This document shows, in pieces, positions 1-59,610 of a DNA stretch of 59,924 nt. This DNA comes from Candidatus Omnitrophota bacterium (GTDB lineage: Bacteria > Omnitrophota > Gorgyraeia > JACQQV01). Made by a program: the position numbers and the translations under genes. Numbering within the stretch: position 1 is the stretch's first letter; each line of letters opens with the position of its first letter. The stretch is taken from assembly GCA_016206785.1 (NCBI GenBank), contig JACQQV010000005.1, forward strand, positions 1 to 59,924. The letters are read 5' to 3'. The notes under the pieces are model-generated. The model worked only from the letters and a program-made list of their open reading frames with translations. It did no database searches and was not told the origin of the DNA.

Positions 1-635
<635 letters not shown>

Positions 636-53766: not shown

Positions 53767-54639
53767 TCAGGCCCTCGGATGCGCTTTTTCATACACCTTT
53801 TTCAGGCGCTCGGCCGTCACATGCGTATAGATCTGAGTCGTCGAAAGGTGTTGATGTCCGAGAAGTTCCTGAACGGATCGTAAGTCGGCTCCCCGATCCA
53901 AAAGATGGGTTGCGAAGGAATGCCGAAGGGTATGAGGAGAGATGTGACGGGCAAGACTTGTCCTTTTGATCACACGATCCAAGACCCTTCGAACGCTCCG
54001 CTGGCTGAGTCGACCGCCTGACTTATTGAGAAAAAGGATTTGGGAGGAACGAAGTGATCTTTTCTCTTTCCGTTTCTCCAGATAGGTCTGGATCGCACGC
54101 AACGCCTTCTCCCCGATCGGACTGAGCCTTTCCTTCTTTCCTTTTCCAGAGACCTTAACCACCCCTCCGATAAAATCGACATCGGAAAGATCGAGCTGTG
54201 TCAGTTCACTCACGCGAAGCCCGGAACTATAAAGCGTTTCGAGGATCGCCCCGTCCCTCAACCCTTGAAGATCCCCTGCAGGTTCCTCGAGGAGTCGCGT
54301 CACCTCTTCGACCCCCAAAACCTTGGGAAGCCGTTTCTCCTGTTTGGGGGTACGCAGAGAAAGGGTAGGGTTTGTGTGGAGATATCCTTCTCGACAGAGG
54401 AATTTGAAAAAGGAACGGAGTGTAGAGAGCTTCCGTGCCACCGTGATTTTTTGAAAATTCTTGGTTTTAAGATCGGCGAGAACTCTTCGAAGGACTAAAA
54501 GATCAATTTTTTCAGGAGGGATGTCACCAACAAATTCCTGAAAGGCCTCAAGGTCACTGCGGTAATTCGTCAGGGTGTGGGAGGAAGCATTCTTTTCGTA
54601 CTCCAGGTAACGGAGGAACTTCTCGATATAGCGTTTCAC
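53767..54639 (-). CDS. xerC: Tyrosine recombinase XerC
   Basis: GLRVSEL, GKGKKER, HTLRHSFATH, LLGH..LSTTQIYTH; dprA-topA-xerC synteny. Confidence 0.9.
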   Translation of the reverse strand: MKRYIEKFLRYLEYEKNASSHTLTNYRSDLEAFQEFVGDIPPEKIDLLVLRRVLADLKTKNFQKITVARKLSTLRSFFKFLCREGYLHTNPTLSLRTPKQEKRLPKVLGVEEVTRLLEEPAGDLQGLRDGAILETLYSSGLRVSELTQLDLSDVDFIGGVVKVSGKGKKERLSPIGEKALRAIQTYLEKRKEKRSLRSSQILFLNKSGGRLSQRSVRRVLDRVIKRTSLARHISPHTLRHSFATHLLDRGADLRSVQELLGHQHLSTTQIYTHVTAERLKKVYEKAHPRA

Positions 54640-56852
54640 TAAGCAACCTCTTCTCCTTCCTTCGGTTTTTCTTTAGAAGTCGGGAGTTGACTGGAGGTAA
54701 AGGTGCACTGGGGGTAACGGCTGCAGCCGTAGAAGAAGCGCCCTTTCTTTGAGCGTCGGGCCACCAATTCCCCGCCGCAACCGGGCGAAGGACAGGCAAC
54801 GCCTGTCGTGATGGAACGGGCGTTCTTGCACTCCGGGAAACCAGAACAGCTTAAGAATTTTCCGGACCTTCCCCATTTGATGACCATCGGCCGACCGCAC
54901 TTCTCACATTTCTCTTCTGTCTCGACAACCTCCCGCTTGATCACGACCTTGGCCTCGGAGAGCCTCTCTGCAAAGGGACCATAGAACTCTTTCAAGACCT
55001 CCACCCACTCCGACCGCCCTTCCTCAATACCATCCAATTCTTCCTCCATGGTCGCGGTGAATTGGATATCAAGGATCTTCGGAAAATTTTCGATGAGAAG
55101 TTTTGTCACCAGATTTCCCAATTCGGTGGGGACAAGACTCCCCTTTTCCCGACGGACGTAATCCCGCTGAATGATTGTCTGGAGCGTCGGCGCATAGGTA
55201 CTGGGCCGTCCGATGCCAAGCTCCTCAAGCGCCTTTACAAGAGACCCCTCGGTATACCGAGGGGGCGGTTTCGTAAAATGCTGGCTCGGGAGAAATTCAT
55301 GAAAGGTCAAAGGCTGACCCACTAAAAGTTCCGGAAGGAGTCTCTCTTTGACTTCTTCCTCCTCTTCGGTCGCGTAGACGGAGAGAAATCCAGGGAAAAG
55401 ACACGACTGGTGCGATGCGCGGAAGAGGGCTACTCCGCAGGCAATATCGACGGAGACGACCAAAAAGTTTGCCTTTTCCATCTGGCTTGCGACAAAACGA
55501 CAATAAATGAGGCGATACAGTTTGTACTGATCTTGCGTCAAATAGGGTTTGATTCCATCCGGTTCTCTAAAGACAGAGGTCGGGCGGATTGCTTCATGGG
55601 CCTCCTGCGCGGTTTTTTTGGAGACATACCGATGGGGTGTCTTTGGAAGATATTCTTTTCCGAATTTTTTTCCGATAAACTCTCTCACCTGGGAAATGGC
55701 GGTGTCACTCACCCGCACCGAATCGGTCCGCATGTAGGTGATGAGTCCTACAGGTCCTTCTTTCCCCACCTCGAGCCCTTCGTAGAGCTGCTGGGCAAGA
55801 CGCATCGTTTTTGCGGCCGAGAAATGGAGTTTGTTAAAAGCATCCTGCTGGAGTTTGCTCGTTGTGAAAGGGGCGGGAGGGGATTTTTTCTTTTCACTTT
55901 TCCGGATCTCCTGGACGATGAAAGGGGATCCTTCAAGTTTCTTCGTGACCGCTTCCACTGCTTCCTTATTCCCCAATTCCGCTTTTTCACCATCCAGCTT
56001 TTCGAGTTTTGCAAGAAAATGCTTCTTCGGTTCTTTTTGTGGAGAAAGGTTCGCTTCCAGTTCCCAATATTCCTTGGGGGTAAATCCCTGAATTTCTTTC
56101 TCCCGATCGACGACCAGACGGACAGCGACCGACTGCACGCGGCCGGCGCTCAAGCCCTTCCCCACCTTTTTCCAGAGAAGGGGGCTTAAACTGTATCCGA
56201 CGATACGATCGAGAATCCGACGGGCCTGCTGGGCATTCACCTTCTTAAGGTCGATGTCGGTTGGATGTTTGAAGGCCTCCAAGACCGCCTCGTGGGTGAT
56301 TTCATGAAACACAACCCGATGAATGTTTTGATGATTTCCCAAATAATTTTTGAGGTGCCAGGAGATCGCCTCCCCTTCCCGGTCAGGATCCGGGGCAAGA
56401 TAGATGGCGTCCATCCCTTTGGCCTCTTTTTTGAGATTGTTGAGCAGTTTTTTCTTTCCCTTGATCACCACGTACGTCGGTTCGAAATTTTTTTCGACAT
56501 CGACTCCCATGGCACTGGTCGGGAGGTCAATCACATGACCCATGGAGGGTAAAACGACGTAACGATCTCCAAGAATCTGGTGAATCGTTTTCGATTTGGC
56601 AGGAGATTCCACAATCACCAATGACTTTGTCGCTCCTCCACCGACAAAATGGATGATTTCCACAACGTCCCTTTCTTTAAGTGCTCTCTCGGCATAACAT
56701 TCTCTGGGAAGGATCGTTTCATTCACCTCGACAACCACCCTTCGAGGATTAATCTTAAGCTCCGTGAGAAGTGAGGCCACGGAAGTTCCCCTCGGAATTC
56801 TCCTCCGTTCCCCATTGACCTTTATTTCAAGACCGACCAGAGTCTCTTTCAT
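54639..56852 (-). CDS. topA: DNA topoisomerase I with an N-terminal ThiS-like ubiquitin-fold domain
   Basis: aa 1-73 are ThiS-like, ending FVGGG. Then LVIVESPAK, DPDREGEAI, SAGRVQS, ITYMRTDS, GIGRPST and C-terminal Zn ribbons. Confidence 0.95.
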   Translation of the reverse strand: MKETLVGLEIKVNGERRRIPRGTSVASLLTELKINPRRVVVEVNETILPRECYAERALKERDVVEIIHFVGGGATKSLVIVESPAKSKTIHQILGDRYVVLPSMGHVIDLPTSAMGVDVEKNFEPTYVVIKGKKKLLNNLKKEAKGMDAIYLAPDPDREGEAISWHLKNYLGNHQNIHRVVFHEITHEAVLEAFKHPTDIDLKKVNAQQARRILDRIVGYSLSPLLWKKVGKGLSAGRVQSVAVRLVVDREKEIQGFTPKEYWELEANLSPQKEPKKHFLAKLEKLDGEKAELGNKEAVEAVTKKLEGSPFIVQEIRKSEKKKSPPAPFTTSKLQQDAFNKLHFSAAKTMRLAQQLYEGLEVGKEGPVGLITYMRTDSVRVSDTAISQVREFIGKKFGKEYLPKTPHRYVSKKTAQEAHEAIRPTSVFREPDGIKPYLTQDQYKLYRLIYCRFVASQMEKANFLVVSVDIACGVALFRASHQSCLFPGFLSVYATEEEEEVKERLLPELLVGQPLTFHEFLPSQHFTKPPPRYTEGSLVKALEELGIGRPSTYAPTLQTIIQRDYVRREKGSLVPTELGNLVTKLLIENFPKILDIQFTATMEEELDGIEEGRSEWVEVLKEFYGPFAERLSEAKVVIKREVVETEEKCEKCGRPMVIKWGRSGKFLSCSGFPECKNARSITTGVACPSPGCGGELVARRSKKGRFFYGCSRYPQCTFTSSQLPTSKEKPKEGEEVA

Positions 56853-57940
56853 ACCCGTGTGTACCGTTTTCCAGGATGTTCCTTGACCAACTTCTTCACT
56901 TCCAGTTGAACAAGGGTCGAGAGGGTTTCCTGGGCAGAAAGGCGGGTCTCCTCGACAATCGTATCAATCGATTTGGGAGAATCGGTGAGATGTTCATAGA
57001 TCACCTCTTCTCCCCCCGCAAGCGTTGGAGCAACACCTCTGGCGGAAGGGTGCTTCGCCACACCTTCTGCGATGGGAATCTTGAGCTCCTCAAGGATGTC
57101 AGTCACCTCTTGTACCAGTTTGGCCCCCTGCTGAATCAGACGGTGAGTTCCTCGAGAAAGAGATGAATCGATCCGGCCCGGAATCGCAAAGACCTCTCGG
57201 CCCTGCTCCATGGCAAAATCTGCGGTAATCAAAGCGCCGCTCCTTTCATCCGCTTCTACCACAAGGACGCCTAAGGAAAGACCGCTGATCACACGATTCC
57301 GGCGGGGAAAATTTTCAGGGAGTGCAGGATAGGTCATCGGAAATTCACTCACGAGGGCTCCCGAAAGAGACACCTCTTTTGCAAGGGTTTTGTTTTCCGA
57401 CGGATAAATCTCCAAGAGGCCGCTCCCGAACACAGCCACGGTCCTCCCCTTTGCGAGAAGCGCCCCTCGGTGCGAGGCGGTATCGATCCCTCTTGCAAAT
57501 CCTGAAACGATGGTGAACCCATACCCAGCAAGTTCCCGCGAAATTCTTTCCGCCGTCTCTAACCCATAAGGAGAAGCCCTTCTTGAGCCCACGATGGATA
57601 AACAGAGGGTACCCTCCGATGGAAGTTCACCCTTTACATAGAGGAGGACCGGGGCATCATGGATCTCTCTGAGCGACTTCGGATACATCTCGTCCAAAAG
57701 GGTCACCATCATTACCCCTTCCTTCTCGGCAGACGCCAGCTCGTTTTGAAAATCGCTTTTTCTCGGTGCATCCAGAATGGATTGGGCGAGTTGCTCTGAG
57801 AGACCGAATTCCCTAAGAACTGCCGCAGAAGCCCCAAACAGATCTTGAGGAGAGGAAAAATGGGAAAGAAGGGTGTGCAATCGGATCGTCCCCAGTCCCT
57901 TCACACCATTTAAAATCAGAAGCGCTTCACGCCCGTCCAC
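56849..57940 (-). CDS. dprA: DNA-processing protein DprA
   Basis: IVGSR, VSGFARGID, FPRRNRVISG, SGALITA. Confidence 0.96.
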   Translation of the reverse strand: MDGREALLILNGVKGLGTIRLHTLLSHFSSPQDLFGASAAVLREFGLSEQLAQSILDAPRKSDFQNELASAEKEGVMMVTLLDEMYPKSLREIHDAPVLLYVKGELPSEGTLCLSIVGSRRASPYGLETAERISRELAGYGFTIVSGFARGIDTASHRGALLAKGRTVAVFGSGLLEIYPSENKTLAKEVSLSGALVSEFPMTYPALPENFPRRNRVISGLSLGVLVVEADERSGALITADFAMEQGREVFAIPGRIDSSLSRGTHRLIQQGAKLVQEVTDILEELKIPIAEGVAKHPSARGVAPTLAGGEEVIYEHLTDSPKSIDTIVEETRLSAQETLSTLVQLEVKKLVKEHPGKRYTRV

Positions 57941-58448
57941 GGTCTTTCCCTTCTAAAAACGTGCAGATCTTCGCGACAACCTCATGGACACTCAACTCGC
58001 TCGTATCGACGTTAAAATCGGCCTGCGCGTAAAAGGCTTCCCTTTCCTTTAAGAGACGGCTGATCGCCTCCTTCGGATCGTCGACATTGAGAAGCGGCCG
58101 ATGACGATGACCCTTTACCCGTTCGTAAATGACAGAGGGGCTCGCCGAAAGAGAGACGACAGGACCCTTTTTCTTCAGATTTTTAACGTTCTCTTCTTTG
58201 AGAACCACTCCGCCACCGCAGTCGATCACCACATTTTCCATCTCCGAGGCCTTCTTCACCATTTCGGATTCGACCTTTCGGAAATAGGGTTCTCCCTTTT
58301 CCTTGAAAATATCATGAATACTCTTATCTTCCTTCATCACGATAAGATCATCGGTTGATACGTACGATTTGTGAAGTTTCTCTGTGAGAGCGAGCGCCAC
58401 AACACTCTTTCCGGTCCCCATGAATCCCACTATGGCAACATTTCCCAT
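57927..58448 (-). CDS. aroK: Shikimate kinase
   Basis: GFMGTGKS, GEPYFR, GGG, RPLL. Confidence 0.95.
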   Translation of the reverse strand: MGNVAIVGFMGTGKSVVALALTEKLHKSYVSTDDLIVMKEDKSIHDIFKEKGEPYFRKVESEMVKKASEMENVVIDCGGGVVLKEENVKNLKKKGPVVSLSASPSVIYERVKGHRHRPLLNVDDPKEAISRLLKEREAFYAQADFNVDTSELSVHEVVAKICTFLEGKDRGRA

Positions 58449-58453
58449 TTTTC

Positions 58454-58488
58454 CCTACCTTGTACTTTTTACTTTATACTTTGTACTA
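58454..58488. repeat. Five-unit 7-bp tandem array overlapping the aroC stop
   Basis: TAC at 58456,63,70,77,84. Confidence 0.75.
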
Positions 58489-59610
58489 AAATTCTCTAAC
58501 CTGTTTCAGGTATCCTTCATAGTTGCGTTTAATTTCGGTTATGGAATCACCGCCGAATTTTTCGCGGAAGCAGTCGGCGATTTCAAAGGCAACGACCGCT
58601 TCCCCGATCACCCCTGCCGCTGGCACCGTGCAGACATCGGACCGTTCAATCGTCGCCTTGACCGGCTGTTTCGTGAGAATATCCACGGAAGGAAGGGGAT
58701 TTAAGAGCGTTGAAATCGGCTTCATGTAGGCTCTCACAATAATCGGTTCCCCACTCGACATCCCTCCTTCGATCCCTCCAGAACGATTACTTCCCCGGTA
58801 AAATCCTTTTTTGGGATCGTGATAGATGGCATCGTGAACTTCGGAGCCCCGCTTCCGGGACCCTGCCACCCCATCCCCAATCTCCACCGCCTTCATCGCC
58901 TGAATCGAAAGGATCGCCCGAGCAAGCCGACCATCCAGTTTCCGATCATAATGAACGAAACTCCCAAGCCCTACAGGGATGCCGATGGCCATCACCTCAA
59001 AAACGCCGCCAAGGGTGTCTTTCCCCTCTTTCGCTTTCGTGATCTCTTCGATCATCCGTTTGCTCGCCTCTTTGTCCGCGCATCGCACCTCGGAGGCTTC
59101 CGCATTTTTCCGGATTTCCTCAAAAGAGAGCCTTTCGGTATTTGCTTCAACATTCCCTATGCGAAGGACGTGACTGATGAAGTCAATCCCAAATTCCTTC
59201 AAAAAAATTTTGCAAAGCGCACCGACCGCGACCCGCGCAGCGGTCTCCCGGGCGCTCGCCCGTTCTAACACATTCCGGATATCGGTGTGGGCATACTTCA
59301 GCGCCCCTGTCAAATCCGCATGCCCCGGCCGCGGCTGGGTCACTTTCGGAAGTTCATTGATTTTGAAATCCTTGTTCTGAATCATGAGCGCAATGGGGCT
59401 GCCCATCGTGAAACCGTCCTTTACGCCGGAAAGGATTTCCACTCGGTCCTGCTCGATCTGCATCCGCCCCCCACGGCCAAACCCCATCTGCCGACGGGAA
59501 AGCTCTGCATTGACGACCGCCCCATCCACTTTGAGCCCGGCCGGCATCCCTTCCACCGTCGCCACAAGACACTTCCCATGACTTTCCCCACTCGTCAGAT
59601 ACCGTAACAT
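58486..59610 (-). CDS. aroC: Chorismate synthase
   Basis: TSGESHG, PRPGHAD, ERASARETA, GGIEGGMS, MKPISTL. Confidence 0.98.
   Translation of the reverse strand: MLRYLTSGESHGKCLVATVEGMPAGLKVDGAVVNAELSRRQMGFGRGGRMQIEQDRVEILSGVKDGFTMGSPIALMIQNKDFKINELPKVTQPRPGHADLTGALKYAHTDIRNVLERASARETAARVAVGALCKIFLKEFGIDFISHVLRIGNVEANTERLSFEEIRKNAEASEVRCADKEASKRMIEEITKAKEGKDTLGGVFEVMAIGIPVGLGSFVHYDRKLDGRLARAILSIQAMKAVEIGDGVAGSRKRGSEVHDAIYHDPKKGFYRGSNRSGGIEGGMSSGEPIIVRAYMKPISTLLNPLPSVDILTKQPVKATIERSDVCTVPAAGVIGEAVVAFEIADCFREKFGGDSITEIKRNYEGYLKQVREF

Follow-up and report, generated by a model that had tools for sequence, protein, structure and literature searches.

A ThiS sulfur-carrier domain encoded in one reading frame with DNA topoisomerase I in Omnitrophota

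Why should a bacterium encode a sulfur carrier of thiamin synthesis and a DNA topoisomerase in one uninterrupted reading frame? The question is raised by positions 1 to 59,924 of contig JACQQV010000005.1, a stretch of 59,924 nucleotides (nt) referred to here as the window, from an Omnitrophota metagenome-assembled genome of 1.6 Mb (50 contigs, 95% complete). The host group consists of uncultured groundwater bacteria; the genome is labelled G000 and the window's own contig C16. An open reading frame (ORF) at 54639..56852 (minus strand), entered in the ORF list with an ATG start and a length of 737 amino acids (aa), matches the Pfam domains ThiS, Toprim, Topoisom_bac and Zn_ribbon_Top1, and is called thiS::topA below. 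The fusion of ThiS to topoisomerase I (TopA) is real, inherited, old and recurrent. Its product is, with a probability of roughly 60%, a polyprotein that is cut after the Gly-Gly-Gly (GGG) end of ThiS, probably by a JAB (JAMM) protease, so that ThiS is set free and an ordinary TopA remains.

The ThiS domain, the junction and TopA

The ThiS domain (aa 10-73; 56634..56825, minus strand, with the same coordinates in the genome search) matches PF02597 over the full model (positions 1-76, E 8.2e-15, 55.6 bits against a cut-off of 22.5) and all 64 positions (1-64) of TIGR01683, the thiS equivalog of NCBIfam (81 bits, cut-off 37.45). Among solved structures it is closest to B. subtilis ThiS of the ThiS-ThiG complex (1tyg_B), and the alignment reaches the last residue of that chain, reading VVEIIHFVGGG in the window and VIEIVHFVGGG in 1tyg_B. 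An AlphaFold2 (AF2) model of aa 1-206 has a predicted local distance difference test score (pLDDT) of 90-96 across the ThiS domain (aa 8-68), with strands at 8-12, 15-19, 39-43, 46-48 and 63-68 and a helix at 25-31, which together form a beta-grasp fold. The pLDDT falls below 50 at residues 70-74, so the junction is predicted to be flexible and exposed.

The motif HFVGGG occupies aa 68-73 of the fusion protein. Gly71-Gly72-Gly73 (GGT GGA GGA; 56634..56642, minus strand) are the tail of ThiS and the proposed cleavage site, and a linker of four residues, Ala-Thr-Lys-Ser (56622..56633, minus strand), joins them to TopA. The junction codons are GTC GGT GGA GGA GCG ACA AAG TCA TTG GTG, encoding V G G G A T K S L V, and include neither a stop nor an ATG. 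The initial annotation, made from the sequence alone, had described a complete ThiS-like domain with its diglycine at about aa 8-73, a run from it into TopA free of stops and Met, and GGGA codons at 56631-56642; profile matches, the 1tyg_B alignment and the codons agree with it on all three. ThiS needs a free carboxylate on its C-terminal Gly, as ThiF cannot adenylate a C-terminus that is engaged in a peptide bond. Here the frame continues for 664 residues past GGG with no stop, so the encoded product is a ThiS domain or precursor rather than a stand-alone ThiS, and a free end would need proteolysis. We infer a cut after the GGG tail from this requirement.

The TopA part is complete, matching TIGR01051 over model positions 1-631 of 632 (804.1 bits, cut-off 456.4). 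It comprises a Toprim domain starting with LVIVESPAK (aa 78-185; 56298..56621, minus strand; PF01751, E 1.7e-23), the Topoisom_bac core, matched end to end (aa 200-621; 54990..56255, minus strand; PF01131, E 5.6e-126), and a first C4 zinc ribbon (aa 647-681; 54810..54914, minus strand), with a second match after it (PF01396, E 6.2e-26, two stretches). E82 of VESPAK and D155-P-D157-R-E-G-E are invariant among 20 aligned fusions. The residues ATKS occupy the place where relatives have the TopA start M-A/G-K-S; the nearest unfused TopA proteins start MGKSLVIVESPAK or MAKSLVIVESPAK, and other Omnitrophota TopA proteins start M-A/P/K-K-S-LVIVESPAK. Compared with ordinary bacterial TopA as modelled by TIGR01051, the window protein shares the Toprim domain, the core, the zinc ribbons and the gene order dprA-topA-xerC, and differs by 77 extra N-terminal residues.

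Recurrence and origin of the fusion

Protein clusters, taken as 90%-identity representatives, were matched with the first 200 residues of the fusion. ThiS and TopA domains occur together in 63 of the best 120 clusters, at 47-77% identity, and all named clusters among those 63 are Omnitrophota or Omnitrophica. A sample of 301 genomes of the phylum was searched with aa 1-130 (E<=1e-25); 22 genomes matched, 16 with an open junction and six with thiS, a stop and topA in the same frame. The long frames of a ThiS family search added four fusions whose linkers span ~27-60 aa, and the fused state recurs in two genomes from the same family as the window's, bringing the fused genomes to at least 22 (16 + 4 + 2), 21 of them besides the window's. 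All fusion and linkage counts are lower bounds, taken from in-frame adjacency among the matches listed.

A stop or frameshift lost in assembly or sequencing might have joined two separate genes, a concern that the metagenomic origin and 50 contigs of the host genome make legitimate. This explanation is rejected as practically untenable, since the fusion recurs in 21 other genomes and 62 other clusters at the identities given above, and contigs from four sequencing runs span 56300-57100 with 0 differences and 0 gaps. These runs belong to a single study, possibly the source of the window DNA, and add no independent support. Two of the points that the initial annotation had left to be checked, the ThiS plus Toprim architecture elsewhere and a junction free of stop and frameshift in reads, thus came out in favour of the fusion, the second within that one study. 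No RNA run is listed as containing the window stretch.

The diglycine, on whose conservation in homologous fusions the processing idea of the initial annotation depended, is kept throughout. GGG is invariant in the 20 aligned fusions, and 62 parsed fusion proteins have 61 GGG and one AGG, so that GG is present in 62/62. The residue after GGG is A, S or G in 55 of these 62, and the linker is 4-35 aa long, extending to ~60 in the four long-linker genomes; a Met lies in the linker of only one of the 62. The Gly codons differ among genomes (GGC GGC GGC, GGT GGA GGA, GGG GGA GGT) while the residues are kept, which places the constraint on the protein and not on the DNA or a ribosome-binding site. 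All 20 aligned fused N-termini match TIGR01683.

Unfused relatives have a ThiS that ends at GGG-stop (four genomes), GGGA-stop, GGGI-stop or GGGV-stop, or that carries 29 aa past GGG. Thus in G307 (L063) thiS ends GGGV-stop and is followed at once by the TTG start of topA, and in G252 (L073) a 29-residue tail past GGG precedes the stop and an ATG-started topA. ThiS with residues beyond GG is therefore common in unfused relatives, and would need trimming to act as a sulfur carrier. Stand-alone thiS genes upstream of topA that run one residue past GGG were noted in G084 (L033, GGGA), G060 (L034, GGGI) and G307 (L063, GGGV). By coordinates alone, a thiS frame of 67-72 aa immediately precedes topA in G041, G239 and G308. 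Where Omnitrophota have no thiS-topA linkage, topA directly adjoins dprA. Unfused forms start topA at TTG or ATG ~6 nt past Shine-Dalgarno (SD)-like Gly codons or AAGGAG (L031, L063, L037).

A tree of the TopA part was built from 26 linked genes and 22 of the 57 listed TopA without a ThiS domain, chosen arbitrarily. The linked genes all lie on one side of a branch with a Shimodaira-Hasegawa-like approximate likelihood ratio test (SH-aLRT) value of 84, and the nearest TopA without a ThiS domain (P0045, P0055, P0072) are placed within the linked clade. The tree requires three or more switches between the fused and the stop-separated state, and two or more are forced by well-supported branches. 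Because thiS-stop-topA stands at the same place in relatives, the fusion arose through loss of the stop codon, at least two to three times.

A likely course of events begins with an ancestral thiS between dprA and topA, from which the thiS stop codon and the topA start codon would have been lost to give a single polypeptide. The ThiS part would still be a working sulfur-carrier module, and the polyprotein would be cut after GGG by a small JAMM/MPN+ (Prok-JAB, Mec+-like) enzyme, often encoded next to a ThiF-type activating enzyme (E1). This would release ThiS for use by ThiF and ThiG in thiazole synthesis, and leave a normal TopA whose N-terminus lies a few residues ahead of LVIVESPAK. The fusion would have been tolerated because a processing protease already existed. 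Most simply, the link between ThiS and TopA is historical, a matter of gene order, and requires no functional tie between thiamin and DNA topology.

Candidate processing genes and competing explanations

The initial annotation had noted that thiG, thiF and a JAB gene are missing from the window; they are, and genome-wide profile searches put all three on other contigs of G000, together with a stand-alone thiS. ThiG is on C4 (E 6.5e-115), ThiE on C17, a ThiF/MoeB-type E1 on C34 (E 1.8e-84) and Prok-JAB on C30 (E 1.9e-21). ThiG is present in 26/26 linked genomes and in 171/301 genomes of the whole sample. Among the matches listed, no ThiS-family match lies near thiG in linked genomes, and a direct check of G000 and G027 found thiG without a thiS neighbour. 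By coordinates, thiS adjoins thiG in the unlinked genomes G091, G290, G276, G282, G232 and G286. In G250 (C19 16708-17649) ThiS and ThiG lie in one frame of 358 aa.

Family f8, five genomes of two genera (92-99% complete), has the simplest inventory. The fused copy is the only PF02597 (ThiS/MoaD-family) match in 5/5 genomes even at E<=10, ThiG is present in 5/5 and ThiE in 3/3 checked. In each, one ThiF-type E1 of 252 aa stands immediately after a 132-aa Prok-JAB in the order PHO4-JAB-ThiF-TerC, the flanking genes being unrelated, and no gene for a ubiquitin-like protein (Ubl) lies beside the JAB-ThiF pair. Either these genomes keep ThiG, ThiF and JAB for nothing, or their ThiS would be freed by cutting. 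Four of the five f8 junctions (L021, L022, L029, L030) contain no ATG, GTG or TTG between GGG and ESPAK, so an independent TopA start is impossible there. Outside f8, no ThiS besides the fused one is matched in G109 or G017 at E<=0.001, and both genomes have ThiG.

A strong match to a Mec+-like Prok-JAB was found in 19/22 fused genomes, and the JAMM motif (E, HxH, S, D) is invariant in 13 aligned JABs. The complex of the G027 JAB with G027 ThiS aa 1-80 and Zn was predicted with a score of 0.52, the best of three controls scoring 0.00; the runs agree in >=30% of contacts and the partner pLDDT is >=75. Of 80 solved complexes 58 attain the mark used, as do 2 of 110 mismatched pairs; passes at 0.60 or less comprise only seven of the 80 solved complexes, and both passing mismatches. 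The prediction offers weak support for the pairing of JAB with ThiS.

Other Ubl genes with attachments occur in the phylum. In G000 and family f10 the JAB lies within a sulfate-assimilation cluster ordered as ATP sulfurylase or PAPS (3'-phosphoadenosine 5'-phosphosulfate) reductase, JAB, small ThiS, cysteine synthase-like PALP, ThrC-like PALP and SAMP1-like Ubl. The G000 copy (C30; L005 3010-8881) reads ATP sulfurylase, TauE, Prok-JAB, a 66-aa ThiS ending at GGG-stop, cysteine synthase-like PALP, ThrC-like PALP and SAMP1-like Ubl, the last extending at least 45 residues beyond its AGG to where the contig stops. ThiS is fused to the cysteine synthase-like PALP in G047 (L050 4111-5256, 381 aa) and G087 (L058 5504-6640, 378 aa), and the SAMP1-like Ubl is fused to NIL in G063 (L051 6334-6906, 190 aa) and G210 (L053 855-1397, 180 aa). 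The single E1 of G000 (329 aa, with ~70 extra N-terminal residues) lies at the end of contig C34 (L015 8921-10170) and is followed by a small NIL-domain gene; since NIL is fused or adjacent to the SAMP1-like Ubl in relatives, contigs C30 and C34 may be neighbours. Attachments after the GG of a Ubl are thus habitual in the phylum, in keeping with a general GG-directed processing activity.

ThiH was considered as a pathway marker and rejected: the matches are below the cut-off, stand beside a second radical S-adenosylmethionine (radical-SAM) match and look like the hydrogenase maturases HydG and HydE. Such radical-SAM pairs are found at G027 C10 59919-61842, G229 C4 93690-95556 and G017 C5 37932-39839.

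Several observations weigh against processing. The cleavage, its position and the identity of the protease are all points that we infer. G000 has the separate ThiS of 66 aa (TIGR01683, 75.7 bits), so the fused copy is not strictly needed by the window's organism. ThiH is unconfirmed, with matches of at most 309 bits against a cut-off of 380, and completeness of the thiazole pathway is thus not established. The genomes are mutually related, and the co-occurrence counts therefore overstate independence. Three of the 22 fused genomes (G017, G109, G301) have no Mec-like JAB: G017 (96% complete) has a weak JAB match only (1.6e-4), and neither JAB nor ThiF was found in G109 (1.0 Mb, 140 contigs) or G301 (92% complete). 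These cases may reflect assembly gaps, which are possible because JAB and ThiF are often neighbours, or another protease, or an unprocessed domain. JAMM-Ubl complexes, finally, have already been solved, so that the passing complex prediction may reflect likeness and not binding.

Were the ThiS beta-grasp never cut, it might serve as an aid to folding or solubility, as a module by which DprA, an E1 or other partners dock, or as a turnover signal, with GGG an inherited flexible hinge. Room for such a permanent domain is left by the three fused genomes without a detectable JAB (two of them also without ThiF) and by the free ThiS of the window's genome; in the AF2 model both domains are predicted to fold well on one chain, and the abstract of PMC3906898 describes ThiS and MoaD as fusion tags that raise expression. 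However, a hinge needs no invariant GG, and GG is kept in 62/62 fusions while the linker varies from 4 to ~60 residues; the thiS equivalog match is retained in 20/20 fusions, and stop codons have been gained and lost at exactly the GGG junction. Seven genomes have the fused copy as their sole ThiS-family gene yet retain ThiG, and the JAB-ThiF pair of the five f8 genomes has no other Ubl as substrate. By established chemistry, moreover, an uncleaved ThiS is not adenylatable at its C-terminus. We consider a domain that is never cut possible but unlikely. The initial annotation had offered both a precursor and a permanent tag, and it is the precursor that gains from the GG kept beside a hypervariable linker, the interchange of fused and stop-separated forms, the extended unfused ThiS and the f8 inventories.

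Translation alone is a far poorer account. TopA would be started at an internal TTG or GTG, as the initial annotation had envisaged, with the Gly codons GGAGGA as a Shine-Dalgarno sequence and the long frame a by-product of annotation. In the window a TTG does follow GGAGGA at 12 nt and a GTG at 15 nt, and unfused relatives do start topA at TTG or ATG, ~6 nt past SD-like Gly codons or AAGGAG. With no stop after GGG, however, translation from the thiS ATG continues into TopA, and free ThiS cannot result. The four f8 junctions without ATG, GTG or TTG leave no such start, the GGC GGC GGC of many fusions does not resemble an SD sequence, and linkers of 27-60 residues leave a long gap between the Gly codons and any TopA start. 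Internal starts might yield some untagged TopA from the window gene, but leave both the existence and the conservation of the fusion unexplained, and we think it very improbable that they are the whole story. A more elaborate form of processing, in which the polyprotein is functional and not a frozen accident, appears doubtful to us. ThiS would then aid the folding of TopA or keep it inactive until the JAMM cut, which would make the fusion the prokaryotic equivalent of ubiquitin-ribosomal protein fusions; TopA maturation and a 1:1 supply of carrier would be coupled and regulable through the protease, and in JAB-less genomes the uncut ThiS might act as a permanent Ubl domain.

Upstream of thiS::topA lies dprA (56849..57940, minus strand, 363 aa; PF02481, E 6e-77, and DprA_WH), whose stop overlaps the ATG of the fusion as ATGA at 56849-56852, in agreement with the initial annotation, and directly downstream lies a xerC/xerD-like tyrosine recombinase (53767..54639, minus strand; PF00589, E 2.6e-48, and PF02899). 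The genes aroC, aroK, dprA, thiS::topA and xerC form a same-strand run (53767-59610, minus strand) with overlapping or near-abutting ends, and are probably one operon; aroC and aroK are named from their ORF translations only. No TPP (thiamin pyrophosphate) riboswitch or other RNA was found near the fusion gene, the sole Rfam match within the window being a partial bacterial 16S rRNA gene at 1-635 (minus strand; model positions 1-629 of 1533), cut by the window start.

Comparison with known systems

Were the cleavage confirmed, bacteria would make a ubiquitin-like protein as the removable leader of an unrelated essential enzyme. The series GGG-stop, GGG+1, GGG+29 and GGG+enzyme would then document, in nature, how a polyprotein can originate where a GG-specific JAMM protease is already in place. 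With a single Ubl, the fused one, and one each of E1, JAB and ThiG, the f8 genomes make an uncluttered test system and would give direct access to JAMM specificity and to the origin of Ubl precursor processing. The fusions are annotated plainly as 'type I DNA topoisomerase', and reconstructions of thiamin pathways would therefore wrongly score ThiS as missing.

Fusions of ThiS/MoaD to ThiG, MoaE, ThiF, sulfite reductase and aldehyde ferredoxin oxidoreductase, and bacterial gene neighbourhoods of JAB, E1 and Ubl, are described in passages of Iyer, Burroughs and Aravind (2006; PMC1779556). The fusion described here shares the ThiS/MoaD part with that catalogue, and its topoisomerase differs from the partners named in those passages (PMC1779556). 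The word 'topoisomerase' has 0 occurrences in PMC1779556 and in the Burroughs 2007 beta-grasp survey (PMC1949818). A ThiS-topoisomerase fusion was unreported in the full text of the literature searched, by a blunt search in which 'ThiS' collides with 'this' and which covered main texts, not supplements.

The nearest parallel is the linear MoaD-MoaE fusion. Both it and ThiS-TopA have an N-terminal carrier of the ThiS/MoaD family and Gly-Gly at the junction, and both would be cut by a JAMM protease, a candidate one here. MoaX of M. tuberculosis is such a MoaD-MoaE fusion, cut by a JAMM/MPN+ protease. Passages of PMC8832034 describe bacterial and archaeal JAMM proteases that cut linear MoaD-MoaE fusions, among them DR0402 of D. 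radiodurans, which cuts the fusion DR2607 and exposes the C-terminal Gly. The cleavage is thus demonstrated there and proposed here, and MoaE is the carrier's own enzyme, whereas TopA is an unrelated essential DNA enzyme.

Shorter extensions are trimmed in CysO/Mec+, QbsE/QbsD and HcyS/HcyD, in which sulfur carriers with short C-terminal additions are processed by JAMM proteases. The unfused relatives ending GGGA, GGGI, GGGV or GGG+29 aa are alike, and the JAB-ThiS-cysteine synthase cluster of the window's genome is of the same type; in the window gene, by contrast, the 'extension' is an entire enzyme of 664 residues. Eukaryotic ubiquitin-ribosomal protein fusions likewise carry an N-terminal, GG-ended beta-grasp Ubl on a housekeeping protein, released by a protease so that the halves are used separately. 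Those fusions are eukaryotic, their Ubl is a protein modifier and their proteases are mostly cysteine deubiquitinases, whereas ThiS carries sulfur and its candidate protease is a JAMM metalloenzyme. To our knowledge, the carrier in the known bacterial cases is joined only to an enzyme of its own pathway (MoaD-MoaE, ThiS-ThiG), and we know of a removable Ubl leader on an unrelated essential enzyme only as a layout tied to eukaryotic ubiquitin. The architecture of ThiS-TopA is best compared with a MoaD-MoaE-like precursor and, by analogy, with the ubiquitin-ribosomal protein fusions, the new point being a partner outside the carrier's pathway.

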